Assembly (NCBI GenBank): GCA_964498285.1
Contig: CAZCGN010000001.1
Location: 100,150-164,149 of the forward strand
Length of the DNA stretch: 64,000 nt
Origin: an uncultured Methanosarcinales archaeon
Lineage (GTDB): Archaea; Nanobdellota; Nanobdellia; Woesearchaeales; GW2011-AR9
Direction of reading: 5' to 3'
Part shown: in pieces, positions 2,667 through 48,672 of the stretch
Numbering within the stretch: position 1 is the stretch's first letter
How the letters are laid out: the number at the start of each line of letters is the position of its first letter
Notes under the pieces: generated by a model
What the model was told of the DNA's origin: nothing
What the model saw: only the letters and a program-made list of their open reading frames with translations
Database searches by the model: none
Program-made: the position numbers and the translations under genes

Positions 2667-5600
2667 TTAACATCCCCACTCCGCTGGGAACCGCCACGTG
2701 CTTGAAGTGGCATCTGTTCCAATCAAGGTTGCACCAGCGGTCTTATCAACACAACTACTCAAGGCTGCATCACATTGCCATAAGGAAGTGCTCGATCCCG
2801 GTATTTGGAATTCAATCAACGTTGGCCTAATTATGTTAATGATCTCTTGACATTTAGTAGCACCAAGACCAACAAAATCACCTTGTGAGGTTGTGTTAAA
2901 ATTCAAATCAGATCCAGCTGTAAAATTCTGGAAAGCTGAGGTCACACTTCCTGTTGCACTTGCATTAATGAAAGTTACACTCCAATTATCTGCTGCTGCA
3001 ACTGTCGGATTACTTACTTTTAGGTCAAATTGACTCATCTGTGTTCTATTAAACTGTGAACCGGCTGCTGCGTTTGCAGTAAGAGAGCTAGTAGTACCAT
3101 CGGGAAAGATAAACACAAAGCTCAAATTTCCAGTAGGGTCCATTGCTGTTTCCCCAGGAAGTGGTGTTGCCTCAAAATTAAAAGTTGTACTACACCCACT
3201 GCACTCCGCAAGATTATCTTTCGTTGTAAAGTTTTCACATCTGCTTACAGCACAGTTCCCACTAATATCACAAACTCGAGTTTTGTAAAAGTAGGTTGTT
3301 GCATTCATAAGACCATTCGCTAGTGCTTCAGGATTGGAAGCATAACTATCTATTGGAGCACTATGCCACAGTTTATACGCTGAAAGTGCCGGATCAACTA
3401 TACCTATATCTCGAACTGTTGCATTAAGTGTTGCACAAGAACTATCATTGTTATAAAACCGTAAAGTTCCATTTGCAGGTTCGTTCGTATCATACTGTAC
3501 AAAAGCGCTCGTTGGAAATGCACTCACTTTTTGCCAGACAACTGATGGTGCCGTTCTATCTGTTGGATCAACCACTAAACTTCCTCCGCAGAAGAACGCA
3601 TCAGATTCACATCCAGGATCATCACAATCAACCAAGTTGTCACCATCATTATCACTACCATCTGCACACAAGAATCCTGCTTCATTTGGAGGAAAACCTT
3701 TCTGCAAAAAGAGTGAACAGTCCGGATCGTTTGATGCTGCAAGACCATCCCCATCCCTATCACCACTTGGTGCGGAACAATCTTCTATTGCAAAGCCGAT
3801 TGCCCCGGGGCTATAATATACTGGGCCGATTGCATCAGATATGAAGCTATCGTTTGTTACAAGGTTACTTACTGTTGAGTAAATTCTAAGGTCAACAGAT
3901 GTGTTAAATTCAGTATAATCAAAAAGTTCACTCTCATCAATTCCTGCCATTCCTCCCCCGATAAGATCACACATAATCTGTGCATTCGTTGTCAAAGGAA
4001 TTGGGGTTGGATACCATACTCCACTCACACACCTGTATGAAACCTTGAGCTCCGAAAGAGAGGAAGTGTATGTTGCTTGATACTTGAAGGAGAATTCATA
4101 TCCTGTTTGCGATGGATCCCCCCGCACAGTACAACTGTTTGTAGTATCCCCATCAGAATCCAAGTACCAAAAGAATGTTCCATTTTGAACACCGGTTCCA
4201 AGACCTCCACCTGAAACTGGAACACCATTACATATGCTACTGTTTGCAAGATTATCTGCAACACCTGTTCCAAGCACTAGCTGGCTTGTTGCATCTCGAA
4301 TTCCAACCGATACTATGTCAAACGTATCCTCAATTGCCGCAACACCAAGGGTTGCATCTCCTGTTGATGCAGACCCTAAGCCCTCAAACGGTTCATTGCC
4401 AATAAAGCTAATGAACGCAGCATCTCCTATCGGATCACACCAACCAGGATTTTCTGTTACTGAGACATTATTTGCAGCATTTGAATCTATAAAATATGTA
4501 CATGTTGCGTTAAGCGCACCATCACAATATGTTTGGTTTCCATCATATTGGTAACATGATCCCCCAAAAGAGTCTGGTTCACATAAACCACTAATAACCT
4601 CACACAAACCGTTTGTACCATCGGAACAAGTAGTATTTGTTTTCGAGAAACAGACCGGTTCACACGCTTGACGGTTAGTATTCCACGCACAGATCTGAGT
4701 TGAAGTAGAGCTAACAGTAACATTTGACTCACATAATGCTTGACTTGTCTGCCTTGTTGTGTTTCCATGACACTCAGAATACATCACAGGCTCACACCAA
4801 GATGGACCACCAGTAATATTCACCCAACCACAACCAGTAGCTGCTAGGCACGCAGTTTCATTTTGTTGTGGGAAACACCCCTCGTCAATAGTATTATTTA
4901 CTTCACAAAAAGAACCTGTTTGAAAGGTACATCCTGTTGTTGCATCACACGCCGTACTGTTAACATCATATTGCCAACATTGTTCTCCAGGGTACCCACA
5001 ATGTCCTGCATTAGCCCCTCCAAATGTTGCTTCAAAATCATCTTGGAGCCAAACGCACCCATTACTCAAGCAAGTAGTATTAATAACATATGATGGACAA
5101 TCACCAAACTGACTACTTAAAGATTCTCCACCACAAAACGCAGAGGTCGCACAGTTTGGATCAAGACAATCTACCTGGCCATCATTATCGTTGTCAATTC
5201 CATCAAAACAATTTTCACCATTATATCCTACTGGCTCACAATATCCGCCTGCCCAGCTACATGCACCAGCACCACCTTCACCATTATTGACACACGTTGA
5301 TTCATCTAAACAACTAAAACAATCATTACCACAATAGGAATCTCCAGCGGAATAACAATAGCCGCCTTGAGGACTGGCAGTATTGTTTTCCCATGCACAA
5401 CTAGCATTACTCGCACTACATTCTGCTTCAGGGCTAGTTAAAAACTGGCACGCTCCGCATTCCCCGCTACAGTCGCCTCCACCATTCGCAATATAATCAT
5501 CATCTGCCCCACACCAACCTAGGCCATTAAGAGAATTAGAATTCTCATCAAACTCACAGAAGCCTAGTGCTGAGTTTTCACAAGCACTTTCTGCCTGGGC

Positions 5601-12075: not shown

Positions 12076-13287
12076 TTATTTTCCTGCAAATATCTCAAGA
12101 ACATCGCCATTTTTAAGCGCGTGTTCTTTACCCACAGTAATTTTTGTCCTAATATTTTTTGCGCGAATAAAGTTCTTTCCAAAATCGGTGTGTAATTTGT
12201 AGGCGAAATCAAGAGCCGTAGAACCTTTTGGTAACAAGAAACAATCGGGAATCACATTTCCATCCTTATCTTCTAACTTGTCCCCCCCAGGATATATTGC
12301 AATGTACCCGAGTACTTCAAACACCGCTTTGTTGAGTGCGTATTGCACGCCAGTTCCAAACTCAAGTGCCTCAAGAACATGTGTTTTAATGAAAGTAAGT
12401 GCTGCTTTTTGTTTTTCATTCAGCTTACTTTCCTCTTTAAGCGCAAATGTTTTCTCGCCAGGAATATACTCAATAAGTTGCGCTTTTGCAGCTTCTCTAA
12501 GTGCAAGCTCACTCTCAGAACTTACTGGGACTAAAGGATAACTTGGAAACTCTTTTGTAAGTCGAGCAAAATTTTCTTTACCAACTCCCACATCGATCTT
12601 ATTGCACACAATCACCATGGGTTTAGTCATTTCTCGCAAAGATCGTGCAAGTTTCAATAAATCGTCTGATTTCCAATCTGTAAATTTTTCTGCATCAAGC
12701 TCAAGTGTTTTGATAGATACCTCAATCATTACTTCAGTTACTTTAAGACCACTCAGTTGCTTTGCAAGAGCCACACTAATCTTTTGTTTTTCTTGGCTGA
12801 CTGTTCGCGCAAATTTTTCCCAACCCTTAGTTAAAATCCCTACATACCACATATCAAGTTCTGTTTCGAGAAATTTGATATCTTCAGCAGGATTGTAACT
12901 TCCACTATCAACACTTTCACCTTTCTCATTTGTTGAACCACTCACATCAATAACATGAATCAAAACATCTGCTTGGCGCAAATCATCCAAAAACTGATTT
13001 CCCATACCTTTTCCTTCGTATGCTCCAGGAACTAACCCTGCAACATCTATCATTTGAACAGGAATAAAGCGGAACTTGCCGAGAACAAAGCCATCACGAG
13101 GGTTTGATACTTTGCCAAAATCACGTGCGACATCTCGTTGTTTTAAATATGCCACACCAATGTTGGGTTTGATTGTTGCAAACGGATAATTTGCTATTTC
13201 AACTTCAGCCAATGTTGCTGCCTTAAAAAAGGTCGATTTTCCAACATTTGGTTTTCCTACAACGCCGATTTGCATGGTTTGTTTCAA
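12076..13287 (-). CDS. Obg-like GTPase/ATPase (YchF/OLA1-DRG family) with C-terminal TGS domain
   Basis: G1 motif GVVGKPNVGKSTFF and DVAGLV (G3) are present. The C-terminal region GDKLEDKDGNVIPDCFLLPKGSTALDFAYKLHTDF is a TGS-like fold. Confidence 0.65.
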   Translation of the reverse strand: MKQTMQIGVVGKPNVGKSTFFKAATLAEVEIANYPFATIKPNIGVAYLKQRDVARDFGKVSNPRDGFVLGKFRFIPVQMIDVAGLVPGAYEGKGMGNQFLDDLRQADVLIHVIDVSGSTNEKGESVDSGSYNPAEDIKFLETELDMWYVGILTKGWEKFARTVSQEKQKISVALAKQLSGLKVTEVMIEVSIKTLELDAEKFTDWKSDDLLKLARSLREMTKPMVIVCNKIDVGVGKENFARLTKEFPSYPLVPVSSESELALREAAKAQLIEYIPGEKTFALKEESKLNEKQKAALTFIKTHVLEALEFGTGVQYALNKAVFEVLGYIAIYPGGDKLEDKDGNVIPDCFLLPKGSTALDFAYKLHTDFGKNFIRAKNIRTKITVGKEHALKNGDVLEIFAGK

Positions 13288-13330
13288 TAATTCATTAGTT
13301 ATATAAAGCTATCTTGAGCGCGCAAGCAGT

Positions 13331-13846
13331 ATGGCGCTCGCATTTGGACACCTAATTAGTGCATGGATCCTAGGGAAGGTGTATGAGAAAGCTTCTTCTA
13401 AGAAACTCGGGCAGAACGTATGGTTTTTTCTGCTCTTTGGAGGGATTTTACCAGACATTGACTTTCTTGTTGAATGGGGGCTTAAAATACCGTACCACAG
13501 AACCTTTACCCATAGTATTATGTTTCTTGTTCTAATGGTGCTTGCAGTCTACATCATAAGTGTTTTGTACAAAGAGAAATATGCAAAAAGGTATGCTATT
13601 GCAATTGGCGCAGGAATCTTGGTTCATCTCGTGTTAGATATGAGCTCGACCAATGGGATTATGTTTTTCTGGCCAAACGAGATGTATTTCTCTTTTACAA
13701 AAGGAGCGACTTTATTTGTGCGGGATGCCTTATTTGCAAACTCAACAGACGTACTCAAAAACATGCTTAAACGAGCAATTTTTGACATGGGTTTGGGTAT
13801 TGCATGGATATTTAGTATGTGGCAGTTCAAAAAGTTGCGGTTTTAG
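13331..13846 (+). CDS. membrane-bound metal-dependent hydrolase (YdjM/DUF457-like)
   Basis: Small polytopic protein with conserved His/Asp residues in the pattern GHLISAW, LPDIDFL, FTHS, HLVLDM. Confidence 0.5.
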   Translation: MALAFGHLISAWILGKVYEKASSKKLGQNVWFFLLFGGILPDIDFLVEWGLKIPYHRTFTHSIMFLVLMVLAVYIISVLYKEKYAKRYAIAIGAGILVHLVLDMSSTNGIMFFWPNEMYFSFTKGATLFVRDALFANSTDVLKNMLKRAIFDMGLGIAWIFSMWQFKKLRF

Positions 13847-14700: not shown

Positions 14701-14824
14701 GCCCCCGTGGCTTAGTGGCTATAGCACCTGACTTGTAGCTGCGCTTATTTGCTATGTTTCCAAAAGTCAAATAACAGCATAGTAAGATATCAGGAGGTCG
14801 TGGGTTCAACTCCCACTGGGGGCT
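14701..14824 (+). tRNA. tRNA-Thr(UGU) with about 51-nt intron at canonical 37/38 position
   Basis: Hand fold: acceptor GCCCCCG/UGGGGGC, D-arm GCUU/AGC, anticodon stem CCUGA/UCAGG, loop CUUGUA with an intron at about 14738-14788, T-arm GUGGG-UUCAACU-CCCAC, discriminator U. Confidence 0.6.
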
Positions 14825-19191: not shown

Positions 19192-19251
19192 TTTAGGTTA
19201 ATGAGGCTAATAAGATTTATAAATGGTTTTATTGTTTTGAGAATATACGCT

Positions 19252-19334
19252 GCCGGTATCGCATAACTTGGTATTGCGCTGGTCTTGAAAACCAGTTTCC
19301 TCTGGATATCCCGGTTCAAATCCGGGTGCCGGCG
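19252..19334 (+). tRNA. tRNA-Ser(UGA)
   Basis: Acceptor GCCGGUA/UGCCGGC, anticodon stem CUGGU/ACCAG with loop CUUGAAA, long variable arm, T-arm CCCGG-UUCAAAU-CCGGG, discriminator G. An oligo-T follows. Confidence 0.7.
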
Positions 19335-19361
19335 TTTTTATTCTATTAGATTAAGAAAAGT

Positions 19362-30745: not shown

Positions 30746-30811
30746 ACTAGAATAAATTAGGAATTCTACTTAAATATTTGTTTTTAAAAATATCTCATTT
30801 AAGAAGATAAG

Positions 30812-30884
30812 CGTCCCCGCAGGGATTTGAACCCTGGTCTCAGGCTCCGCAAGCCTGTGTTCTATCCAACTATACTACGGGGAC
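30812..30884 (-). tRNA. tRNA-Arg(GCG)
   Basis: Reverse complement folds into a cloverleaf: acceptor GUCCCCG/CGGGGAC, anticodon stem CAGGC/GCCUG with loop UUGCGGA, T-arm CAGGG-UUCAAAU-CCCUG. Length 73 nt. Confidence 0.8.
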
Positions 30885-45618: not shown

Positions 45619-45849
45619 CTACTCAACCTTCTCAAACCGTTTCATAACTTTACCATCTCTTTCGACCGTTTCTAAGAACATAGCAAGAGGTCGTACCCAC
45701 ATAGACCCTTTGGGTTTCTCTTGAAATTCTTCGAGTTTTTTGTAGACAACCAATCTCTCAAGTGTTTCAGAATGCTGCGCAACTCCAATGACCTCAACAA
45801 GTGCGCCCTTAAAGTGTTTATACACCCCTAATGCAACTTCTTCCATCAT
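45619..45849 (-). CDS. DUF1653-like small protein
   Basis: YKHFKGALVEV...AQHSETLERLVVY pattern. Confidence 0.4.
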   Translation of the reverse strand: MMEEVALGVYKHFKGALVEVIGVAQHSETLERLVVYKKLEEFQEKPKGSMWVRPLAMFLETVERDGKVMKRFEKVE

Positions 45850-47150
45850 GGCTTGTAGCGTTCCATAGTTCGCGGAAACGGGATTGTATCTTTAATATTC
45901 TCTAAATCACAAATCCATCTGATTACTCTTTCAACACCAAGGCCAAATCCACCGTGCGGAACAGAACCATAGCGTCTTGTATCCAAATAGAATTCGTATT
46001 CCAAAGGATCTTCACCATCTTCAACTAAGCGTGCCTTTACCTTTTCAATATCATGCTCTCTGTGAGATCCGCCAATAATCTCGCCATATCCTTCGGATGC
46101 TAAAAAATCACAGCCTTGCACCACTTTTGAATCATCAGGATCTTCAGTCATATAAAATGCTTTTACCTTCTTAGGGTAGTGCGTACAAATCACTGGAACA
46201 TCATAGAGTTTTGTTAATTTCTCCTCTTCAATAGTTCGAAGATCCTTGCCCCAAGGCACATTCATTTTACATTTCTCTTTAAGAATTTTAAGGGCTTCTG
46301 TGTACGTCATACGAACAAACGGCTTTGTAACAACTGGTTTTAGTTTTGAGATATCTCTCCCCAGAGCTTTAAGTTCTGTAGCATTCGTATCTAGCACCGT
46401 TTTTACAATATGTTTTATGAGCGCTTCACCATGCGCGATAATTTGATCAAAATTAGCCCATGCCATTTCCATTTCAGCATGCCAGTACTCAGTTAAATGA
46501 CGCGAGGTTTTAGATTTCTCTGCACGAAAGGAGGGTGCGATTGTATAAATATTTTCAAGCCCAAAAATGGCTGGTTCTGCATAGAGTTGCCAGGTTTGTG
46601 CTAAAAATACTCCTTTTTTACCAAAATAATCAACATTAAAGAGGTCAGATCCACCTTCACATTGTACCGCTTGAAAAATCGGGGAATGATATTCATAAAA
46701 ACCCTGTCCTTTGAAATATTCATCAATTGCACCAAAGACTGTTGATCTAATCTTTAAGATGTTAATCATTTTTTGGCTACGAAGATGCAAGTGTCTGTTA
46801 TCTGCCAAATGTTCAATGGATGTATCTTTTGTTATAGGAAATTTATCAGATGTTCCAACTATCTCAAATGAGGCTACCTGCAACTCGTACCCTGTTGGCG
46901 CTCGTTTATCTTCTTTTATTTCACCAGTTAGCATTAGGGAAGTTTCAACTTGTATATGGTCAATTGCGTCCCACTCCTTCTCAAAAGAATCACGTTTAAA
47001 GATACATTGAAGAAGGCCCGTTGAATCTCTAAGAACAATGAATTTGAGTTTGTTTGAGCCACGTTCTCTGTGCACCCATCCTCGAATGCAAACAGCACCC
47101 TTGCCCACATCCATTGCAGACTGTATTGAGATATACGTTGGTTTTGCCAT
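45846..47150 (-). CDS. asnS: class IIb aminoacyl-tRNA synthetase, most likely asparaginyl-tRNA synthetase (AspRS not excluded)
   Basis: N-terminal OB anticodon-binding domain. Motif 2 FRAEKSKTSRHLTEYWHAEMEMAW, GGSHREHD (AsnRS-like GGSxRE), motif 3 GFGLGVERVIRW. Confidence 0.7.
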   Translation of the reverse strand: MAKPTYISIQSAMDVGKGAVCIRGWVHRERGSNKLKFIVLRDSTGLLQCIFKRDSFEKEWDAIDHIQVETSLMLTGEIKEDKRAPTGYELQVASFEIVGTSDKFPITKDTSIEHLADNRHLHLRSQKMINILKIRSTVFGAIDEYFKGQGFYEYHSPIFQAVQCEGGSDLFNVDYFGKKGVFLAQTWQLYAEPAIFGLENIYTIAPSFRAEKSKTSRHLTEYWHAEMEMAWANFDQIIAHGEALIKHIVKTVLDTNATELKALGRDISKLKPVVTKPFVRMTYTEALKILKEKCKMNVPWGKDLRTIEEEKLTKLYDVPVICTHYPKKVKAFYMTEDPDDSKVVQGCDFLASEGYGEIIGGSHREHDIEKVKARLVEDGEDPLEYEFYLDTRRYGSVPHGGFGLGVERVIRWICDLENIKDTIPFPRTMERYKP

Positions 47151-47250
47151 AAATTTTTACTAGCAATCAGCCCTATAAAAAGCTTTCTTGTGTATAGCTA
47201 TATCTTCTGAGCAAAGTATATAAAAAGGATTTGACTTTTTTAAGGGGTAT

Positions 47251-47424
47251 GGGCCCGTAGCTTAGCCTGGATACCGGAACTCCTCTGCTGGATTTAGCGG
47301 TAAGGCAAATAGAGCAGTTCCCTCCTACTTCAATGCCAAGGCACAATAGGCCTTGCTTGAGGCAAGTAAGGAAAAGATCGGGGGTTCGAAACGTCTATTT
47401 GACACGAAAGTCCTCCCGGGCCCG
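47251..47424 (+). tRNA. putative multi-intron tRNA (hand parse: tRNA-Arg CCU with three introns)
   Basis: Perfect 7-bp acceptor GGGCCCG...CGGGCCC plus discriminator G. Canonical D-arm UAGCUUAGCCUGGAU..AGAGC is interrupted by about 38 nt. Anticodon stem-loop GUUCC-CUCCUA|intron of about 41 nt|A-GGAAA. T-arm GGGGG-UUCGAAA|about 20 nt|CCUCC. Spliced length about 75 nt. Confidence 0.45.
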
Positions 47425-47559
47425 CATTTAACTTCACGAGCACTCAAGATCCAATGACGAACCCTATGAGTAGACCCAATATGGGATTATCGAAGTAGGC
47501 TGAGGATGAGTATTGCTCTTAGCATTCCACAACATTTATAGAATTCTTCAACTTTCCAC

Positions 47560-48672
47560 TTGCTAATGACGTCCCTCATCTTCTATTTAACACAAGGCCC
47601 TCGAGTATTCTTAACGTCCTGGAAAAATAGGTTATTTCCAAAAAAGTTTGAAGGAGATGCTAAAGAGATCTGCCAGGCTATTGTTAAAACATGTTGGAAG
47701 GGAAGATACTTCCAGACATCTTCCACGAACTTCCCCCAATTCTGGGCACGAGACTTTGGATGGTGTATTAAATCATTAATTGAACTTGGGTACACAAAAA
47801 AGGTACATAAGACACTTCGTTACGCACTCAACCTCTATAGAAAGTATGGAAAAGTCACAACAACAATCACTCCACAGAATACACCATTTGATTTTCCTGA
47901 GTTTGGAGTAGATTCACTTCCGTGGCTTATTCACAGCATTGTTGCATCATCTTTTAATTACAAACCATACAAAGAGTTCCTAAACAGAGAAATACGAAAA
48001 TTCAAGGAGCATGTTGTAGACGAAAAAACAGGTCTTGTAAAACCAGACGAACACTTCTCATCTATGAAAGATTTTTCTCTTCGTAAAAGTTCATGCTATG
48101 ATAATTGTATGGTTGCAATGCTTGCAGTAGATTTGCATAAAACAACACTACACAACCCATTTGCAAAGAAAAACGCAACCCAAACCCATAGTTTCTATGC
48201 AGACCTGATCTATAAACACTTTTGGAGTGGCGAATATTTCTACGATGATATAGAAATGAAAAAATATGTTGCGGGTGATGCGCAAGTTTTTCCACTTATT
48301 TTGGGCTTTATTGAAGATGAAAAAGAGATACAATCTATGATCAAAGCAGTTAAAGAGAATAATCTTACAAATCCTCTGCCACTCAGGTACACAAAAGAGC
48401 GGCACATGGCAGAATTTATTCCACAAGAATGGATCTTTTTTCGAAACTATGAAGGTGATACGTCCTGGACCCATATGGGACCATTATGGATTAAAGCGAT
48501 TAAAAAGTATGATCCTAAACTTTCAGAAAAATACAAAGAAGCATACACTAAACATATCGAAAAGGAGAAAGCTTTCTGTGAAGTTGTAAGAACTGATGGT
48601 AAACCCTTTCGGACACCATTCTATTACTCTGATCGAACCATGCTTTGGGCATGCAACTATTTGACTCTCTAA
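47560..48672 (+). CDS. putative (alpha/alpha)6-barrel glycoside hydrolase (GDE_C/GH63-like)
   Basis: FPQFWARDFGW resembles the GYPWFxxWGRD motif of glycogen-debranching-type hydrolases. Length 370 aa. The start may lie downstream. Confidence 0.35.
   Translation: MLMTSLIFYLTQGPRVFLTSWKNRLFPKKFEGDAKEICQAIVKTCWKGRYFQTSSTNFPQFWARDFGWCIKSLIELGYTKKVHKTLRYALNLYRKYGKVTTTITPQNTPFDFPEFGVDSLPWLIHSIVASSFNYKPYKEFLNREIRKFKEHVVDEKTGLVKPDEHFSSMKDFSLRKSSCYDNCMVAMLAVDLHKTTLHNPFAKKNATQTHSFYADLIYKHFWSGEYFYDDIEMKKYVAGDAQVFPLILGFIEDEKEIQSMIKAVKENNLTNPLPLRYTKERHMAEFIPQEWIFFRNYEGDTSWTHMGPLWIKAIKKYDPKLSEKYKEAYTKHIEKEKAFCEVVRTDGKPFRTPFYYSDRTMLWACNYLTL

Follow-up and report, generated by a model that had tools for sequence, protein, structure and literature searches.

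A discontinuous tRNA locus

Positions 47251-47424 (+ strand) of the window, by which we mean the whole 64,000-nucleotide stretch of DNA analysed here, hold a colinear tRNA-Arg(CCU) gene of 174 nt with introns of 38, 41 and 20 nt. The acceptor halves, GGGCCCG and CGGGCCC followed by G, have 160 nt between them, and the locus also carries UAGCUUAGCCUGGAU and GGGGGUUCGAAA; a preliminary description of this DNA had given the acceptor halves, the D-arm start and the T-arm in the same way, and the sequence agrees. The four exons and three introns, with the box that precedes them, are laid out as follows.

47217-47226, + strand: TATA box TATATAAAAA, some 25-34 nt before the first tRNA nucleotide, read from the sequence; putative promoter
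47251-47270, + strand: exon 1, GGGCCCGUAGCUUAGCCUGG; acceptor 5' strand, U8 A9, D-stem 5' strand and D-loop to G19
47271-47308, + strand: intron 1 (38 nt), which separates G19 from A20 in the D-loop; BHB scan and fold give a strict hBHBh' motif
47309-47327, + strand: exon 2, AUAGAGCAGUUCCCUCCUA; A20 to A37, with anticodon CCU at 47324-47326
47328-47368, + strand: intron 2, 41 nt, at the canonical position 37/38; degenerate BHB, junction taken from intronless genes
47369-47390, + strand: exon 3, AGGAAAAGAUCGGGGGUUCGAA; A38 to A59
47391-47410, + strand: intron 3 (20 nt), which separates A59 from U60 in the T-loop; BHB scan and fold give a relaxed hBH motif
47411-47424, + strand: exon 4, UCCUCCCGGGCCCG; U60, T-stem 3' strand, acceptor 3' strand and discriminator G73, with CCA not encoded

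All exons stand in 5'-to-3' order within one contiguous locus at 47251-47424, so the arrangement is neither split nor permuted.

The preliminary description had also held that a contiguous cloverleaf cannot be drawn here and that standard tools would miss the gene, and both statements were borne out. ARAGORN made no contiguous tRNA call on the unspliced segment 47251-47424, and Rfam returned no match there, either at the gathering threshold or at E<=10. Across the whole window, ARAGORN reported only tRNA-Ser(UGA) at 19251-19335 and tRNA-Arg(GCG) at 30811-30884, and Rfam added one further tRNA, an intron-containing one, at 14701-14824. Once the 38, 41 and 20 nt were excised, ARAGORN called a 75-nt tRNA-Arg(CCU).

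Such a locus might instead be unrelated sequence with tRNA-like pieces, arising by chance resemblance or from an assembly artefact. The heuristic that pairs an acceptor stem with a T-arm yields, taken alone, about one false match per shuffled 64-kb window, and the folding energy of the whole precursor is not exceptional (z -1.52). In the real window, however, the same heuristic returned exactly four loci, the three known tRNAs and 47251-47424. The Logan assembly of run SRR8146441 also has a contig (L001) with identical DNA, which lends weak support because it may derive from the same data.

The putative promoter resembles those of the other tRNA genes. A box of the TTTATAAA type lies upstream of all four tRNA genes of the window (14701, 19252, 30884 on the minus strand, and 47251), ending about 26-29 nt before position 1. 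None of the four (0/4) encodes CCA, and the T tract 3' of the tRNA-Arg(CCU) gene is short. The tetranucleotide GTAT directly precedes the first tRNA nucleotide in 3/4 of these genes.

The D-loop and T-loop introns

Cut sites were located by BHB geometry, in which each strand contributes a 4-nt central-helix strand, a 3-nt bulge cut after its second nucleotide, and an outer helix, as PMC4090602 also describes it. Intron 1 has a central helix of GCCU with AGGC, paired at 4/4 positions, bulges GGA and AAA that are cut before the final A, and outer helices of 3 and 5 bp. With the ten nucleotides of the D-loop numbered 14, 15, 16, 17, 17a, 18, 19, 20, 20a and 21, the intron falls at G19/A20. Its start at 47271 is 2 nt upstream of the cut proposed in the preliminary description, yet the spliced product is identical, because the dinucleotide AU is repeated at the two places.

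For intron 3, the T-stem (5 bp) serves as the outer helix, the central helix joins UUCG (positions 54-57) to CGAA at 4/4 positions, and the bulges are AAA and AGU, cut before the last A and the U, respectively. This motif is of the hBH form, since there is no intron-side helix in register. The resulting boundaries, 47391-47410, correct the T-loop from UUCGAAA, as it had been read before, to UUCGAAU. When the entire precursor was folded without constraints, the minimum-free-energy structure also contained the helices of introns 1 and 3, along with the acceptor, D and anticodon stems.

The spliced product

ARAGORN was tried as a judge of splice products and rejected: with dozens of other excision sets, it still called the product a tRNA, of one isotype or another. 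Because it was too permissive, we replaced it with a score of cloverleaf pairing and conserved nucleotides, accompanied by shuffled controls. The score has a maximum of 35, made up of 21 cloverleaf pairs and 14 conserved features (U8, A14, G18G19, A21, G10-C25, Y11-R24, Y32, U33, R37, G53-C61, U54-U55-C56, R57, A58 and R15-Y48). It was applied to all combinations of all BHB-like cut-site pairs in the 174 nt that leave a product of 71-79 nt (n=632).

The 75-nt Arg(CCU) product scored 34/35, and the excision set of the preliminary description (about 38, 41 and 20 nt) thus yields the product claimed for it, both by the ARAGORN call and by this score. The joined colinear exons form a canonical cloverleaf, with 20/21 stem pairs and all 14/14 conserved features. 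No other combination among the 632 reached this value, the next scores being 30, 29 and 28. When the interior was shuffled 150 times with the acceptor stem kept, the best product reached 26/35 and the mean was 21.9, against 34 for the real sequence, which argues against a chance resemblance.

A different excision set could nevertheless be the real one, giving another isotype or another number of introns, for example through the pairs 47270/47365 or 47301/47359. The 174 nt do contain several BHB-like pairs, including three 'strict' ones besides that of intron 1, and ARAGORN accepts alternative products as tRNA-Cys, tRNA-Asn, tRNA-Ala and others. The permissiveness of that program makes its acceptance a poor test, however, every alternative scores 30/35 or less against 34, and only the Arg(CCU) product matches real tRNAs of other genomes (see below). 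We therefore regard a different excision set as very improbable.

The canonical intron

The preliminary description had proposed that BHB motifs be sought at the three junctions. Introns 1 and 3 have them, with 4/4 central pairs and 3-nt bulges, but for intron 2 the outcome is only half positive. In the canonical register, its central helix forms 2/4 pairs (C32-G and U33-A pair, whereas C34.A and C35.C do not), flanked by the anticodon stem (4) on the exon side, by two G.U pairs (2) on the intron side, and by a 3-nt UAA bulge cut before its final A. The intron itself is an irregular hairpin with a 3' tail, CAAGUA. Folding favours a different 2-bp helix, C35-G and U36-A, and closes the intron with a 6-bp helix of CUUCAA with UUGAGG, topped by the irregular hairpin; the cut sites then lie around an internal loop rather than in a true BHB. 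The BHB-like register lies 2.1 kcal/mol above the fold minimum and has a pair probability of about 0.01. We sought a better motif in other registers, with other intron lengths, with other anticodons (CGU, AGU) and with a CCUC/GAGG pairing, and found none; a nested inner intron at the BHB-like pair 47342/47361, judged by hand, likewise offered no better motif.

At the level of the product the junction is nonetheless fixed, because the spliced anticodon arm is identical to that of intronless tRNA-Arg(CCU) genes: 76 such genes from bacteria read AGTTCCCTCCTA directly followed by AGGAAAAG across the intron 2 junction, including the mismatch G27.A43. The product would be no different if the intron were cut out at 35/36 or 36/37 instead of 37/38.

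Intron 2 is unusually weak for its lineage, given that the canonical introns of relatives have mostly 3-4 central pairs (among the matches listed) and that another tRNA gene of the window has all four. This gene, tRNA-Thr(UGU) at 14701-14824 (+), was found by Rfam and missed by ARAGORN in default mode; its 51-nt canonical intron, at 14738-14788, forms a strict BHB with 4/4 central pairs and outer helices of 5 and 3 bp. CAAG, at the 3' end of intron 2, could form 4/4 pairs with an anticodon loop reading CUUG (anticodon UGN) and 3/4 with one reading CUUC (UCU), a hint that the intron may have originated in another tRNA, or that the anticodon may have changed after the intron became fixed. Reading of the introns revealed no C/D-box or other box motifs, and Rfam gave no match in them.

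The weakness of intron 2 raises the possibility that the locus is a decaying, non-functional copy, in which splicing could still take out introns 1 and 3 but the BHB of intron 2 has been lost, so that no mature tRNA-Arg(CCU) would form and AGG would be read by a tRNA-Arg(UCU) encoded elsewhere. The 2/4 central pairs, compared with 4/4 in the tRNA-Thr of the same genome and mostly 3-4 in relatives, and the unfavourable energy and low pair probability of the BHB-like register, are as such a copy would have them. Wobble would in principle allow a tRNA-Arg(UCU) to read AGG; in the long open reading frames of the window, AGG is used 5.3 times per 1000 codons. On the other hand, the exons have lost neither conserved nucleotides nor stem pairing, at 14/14 nucleotides and 20/21 pairs, and the TATA box stands at the standard distance, as it does for the other tRNA genes. 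The nucleotides at the intron 2 splice sites, A37 and U-A-A38, are placed between the anticodon stem and the intron helix and are predicted to be unpaired (P 0.72-0.86) beside these stable helices, as a permissive endonuclease (EndA) would need. Passages in PMC4033280, PMC4090602 and PMC5829648 describe broad-specificity EndAs that cleave relaxed motifs (hBH, HBh' and BHL). On balance, we consider a decaying copy unlikely and favour a functional gene with a weak canonical motif.

Relatives and shared intron sites

A metagenome scan that used the 19-nt exon 2 as its word found the identical 19-mer in 76 bacterial intronless tRNA-Arg(CCU) genes and in 2 archaeal tRNA-Arg(CCU) genes. Three archaeal relatives are compared here with the window gene.

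L147: metagenome contig; tRNA-Arg(CCU) with one canonical intron of 100 nt, 67/75 identical to the window product
L128: Micrarchaeota by its HisRS neighbour; tRNA-Arg(CCU) with four introns, at 19/20, 37/38, 43/44 and 59/60, 70/75 identical
L208: Micrarchaeota MAG GCA_026396285.1, syntenic with L128; introns at 19/20 (65 nt), 37/38 (42 nt) and 59/60 (55 nt), 69/75 identical

Outside the 19-nt search word, identity to the window product is 48/56 for L147 and 51/56 for L128. Among the four genes, the T-stem has changed on both sides, with G-C versus A-U at 49:65 and at 50:64. L147 lacks the D-loop and T-loop introns and runs uninterrupted across both junctions, and the 76 bacterial genes run uninterrupted across all three. 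The number, lengths and rough positions of the introns and the anticodon given in the preliminary description are right, and L147, L208, L128 and the bacterial genes lead to the same junctions.

In L208, the gene lies at 2648-2884 on the minus strand of JAPLXB010000031.1, and all three introns have 4/4 central helices. Its introns occupy exactly the three positions used in the window gene, so these sites are common to two DPANN phyla. That orthologues share intron positions also bears on a chance origin of the locus; together with the splice-combination score and the shuffles, it effectively refutes both chance resemblance and assembly artefact. These results confirm that the locus is a real archaeal arginine-tRNA gene with three short introns.

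The L128 gene, at 13154-13463 (+) of FWPU01008925.1, has excisions of 68 nt (19/20), 49 nt (37/38), 53 nt (43/44) and 65 nt (59/60). The 43/44 intron is a near-copy of the D-loop intron of the same gene (GAACCTTTTT...AAAAAGCTTCACCAAAAA), its outer helix using the 3' end of intron 2, and it therefore looks like a recent intragenic intron duplication. We considered whether four introns in one tRNA gene were unprecedented and rejected this, as four-intron tRNA genes of Asgard archaea have been tabulated (PMC11291895).

A scan of the genome collection with the 5' exon returned mostly tRNA-Ile/Met genes, which have the acceptor and D arm in common with the query, and it was used as a survey of intron sites. 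At 59/60, the architecture UUCGAA^...CGAAAR^U (with ^ marking the cuts) occurs in L012, L058, L068 and L104 among the matches listed, and also in L128 and L208. The pairing at this site, again among the matches listed, is UUCG/CGAA in L012, L058, L068 and L104, UUCA/UGAA in L027, L052 and L122, and UUCA/UGGA in L047 and L096; G57 or A57 of the tRNA thus covaries with C or U in the intron. In the D-loop, the site that follows GCCUGG is found again in L084 and L082 among the matches listed, and L128 and L208 use it too.

Many of the tRNA-Ile/Met genes among the matches listed, on contigs of Woesearchaeota or Nanoarchaeia MAGs (L012, L024, L038, L052, L055, L084, L122), measure 130-310 nt from acceptor to acceptor and have at least two introns. 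Those of L038 (308 nt), L055 (261 nt) and L052 (225 nt) were skipped or left unsolved by a simple BHB search, and may hold at least three introns or long insertions.

Host and neighbouring genes

The host is a Woesearchaeota-like DPANN archaeon. The divergent neighbour, at 45846-47150 on the minus strand, encodes an asparaginyl-tRNA synthetase (AsnRS) whose closest named homologues come from Woesearchaeota and Nanoarchaeota MAGs. Downstream, a reading frame from the ATG at 47566 to 48672 on the plus strand encodes a conserved hypothetical protein of 368 aa from the same lineage. In the closest relative, AsnRS is 89% and the neighbouring gene 78% identical; in the more distant relatives, the tRNA adjoins neither AsnRS nor the 368-aa gene. 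The genes around the tRNA locus are housekeeping genes, without evident link to the tRNA, and the G+C content of the window is 36-42%.

The 368-aa protein has no Pfam domain on record and gives 333 matches at E<=1e-10, spread over hundreds of Woesearchaeota and Nanoarchaeota assemblies. A homologue appears in one JGI record under the name 'glycogen debranching enzyme'.

The non-coding stretch after the tRNA gene had been suggested to hold further structure (47430-47559). This was not supported: the spacer 47425-47565 showed no structure (fold z-score +0.65) and no Rfam match. It does contain TTTATAGA at 47535-47542, which we read as the TATA box of the following gene, whose ATG lies 24-31 nt further on. 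A phmmer search of all open reading frames of the window for EndA gave no match, in what was a weak test, as the query was an approximate version of the M. jannaschii EndA sequence.

Interpretation

Taken together, the computed exons, junctions, BHB geometry, promoter spacing and orthologues make it probable that a Woesearchaeota-like DPANN archaeon has here a functional and colinear gene for tRNA-Arg(CCU), with three protein-spliced introns of the BHB type. The enzymes, splicing itself and cleavage at the weak BHB of intron 2 enter this explanation as inferences, and the pathway would run as follows. Transcription directed by the TATA box at 47217-47226 would give a precursor some 175-180 nt long. 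EndA, the enzyme that splices archaeal tRNAs, would cut the 3-nt bulges of the three BHB or relaxed BHB motifs, including the weak one of intron 2, and an RtcB-type ligase would presumably join the four exons. RNase P would trim the short leader, CCA would then be added, and the 75-nt product would serve as the tRNA reading AGG codons.

A broader reading of the same data is possible, although we hold it as doubtful. The 19/20, 37/38 and 59/60 sites could represent an old, DPANN-wide three-intron architecture that was kept across phyla and to which introns are still being added by intragenic duplication. Intron 2 of the window gene, having lost half of its central helix, would then either have been transposed from another tRNA or be cut by a lineage-specific endonuclease that accepts substrates with two central pairs, perhaps by measuring from the mature domain. 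Eukaryotic splicing enzymes do measure from the mature domain.

Neither ARAGORN nor the Rfam tRNA model detects the gene, and an automatically annotated version of this genome would therefore probably lack a tRNA-Arg(CCU). A gene missed in this way might wrongly suggest an incomplete tRNA set or an altered decoding of AGG. It also provides a clean example, accompanied by orthologues, of the recurrent 19/20 and 59/60 intron sites in DPANN tRNAs. Our understanding of tRNA intron function is unchanged by it, and no new biological principle is involved; the intron at the canonical position, with its very weak BHB, is nevertheless a natural substrate for probing how permissive DPANN endonucleases are.

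Relation to known multi-intron tRNA genes

Multi-intron tRNA genes are known from Thermoproteales, Asgard and DPANN archaea, as passages in PMC4090602, PMC4033280, PMC11291895 and PMC5829648 describe. The window gene therefore adds to a published kind, in which three or four introns are not unprecedented. In Thermoproteales, the tRNA-Pro(UGG) gene of Pyrobaculum islandicum is interrupted at 25/26, 37/38 and 56/57 (PMC4090602 and PMC4033280, after Sugahara et al. 2007/2008). Such genes resemble the window gene in combining three BHB-type introns in one colinear gene, at canonical, D-region and T-loop positions, in mixing strict with relaxed (hBH/HBh') motifs, and in being missed by ordinary tRNA finders. 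In contrast, the host here is a DPANN archaeon rather than a crenarchaeon, the D-loop and T-loop sites are 19/20 and 59/60, and the endonuclease of the host is probably not an (alpha-beta)2 enzyme with the crenarchaeal loop.

The phenomenon has been described within the same superphylum by Kaneta et al. 2018 (PMC5829648), whose survey of DPANN archaea, in the sections we draw on, includes a Woesearchaeota genome and reports non-canonical and multiple introns associated with EndA variants that have an extra loop (L2/L3). These sections document permissive EndA in DPANN, and they flag predicted tRNA sets that are incomplete in some DPANN genomes, implying unrecognised disrupted genes. They give proportions per genome, and the window gene is not described in the main text (PMC5829648).

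The closest counterparts are L208 and L128, with the same isoacceptor, a mature sequence that is 69-70/75 identical, and introns at 19/20, 37/38 and 59/60 in common. They differ from the window gene in having longer introns (42-68 nt), every one of them with 4/4 central pairs, and L128 has the extra 43/44 intron; beyond the ends that the BHB constrains, the intron sequences cannot be aligned with those of the window. The same BHB-endonuclease machinery also serves tRNA genes that are split or permuted (Nanoarchaeum equitans, Caldivirga, Thermofilum; PMC3218864, PMC4033280), whereas the four exons of the window gene follow one another in the usual order, all on the same strand and within 174 nt.

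For Asgard archaea (Atabeyarchaeia/Freyarchaeia), Valentin-Alvarado et al. 2024 (PMC11291895, Supplementary Data 4) tabulate tRNA genes with as many as four introns, and these show that a tRNA gene can have three or four introns outside Thermoproteales. They belong to a different superphylum, however, and for tRNA-Arg(CCU) the same table lists one or two introns per gene. By eye, a further tRNA-Arg(CCU) candidate is discernible in a Heimdallarchaeota MAG (L042, at about 5120-5330 (+) of JBHLSH010000032.1), with what appear to be a canonical intron and a T-loop intron at or near 59/60, and it adjoins another interrupted tRNA.
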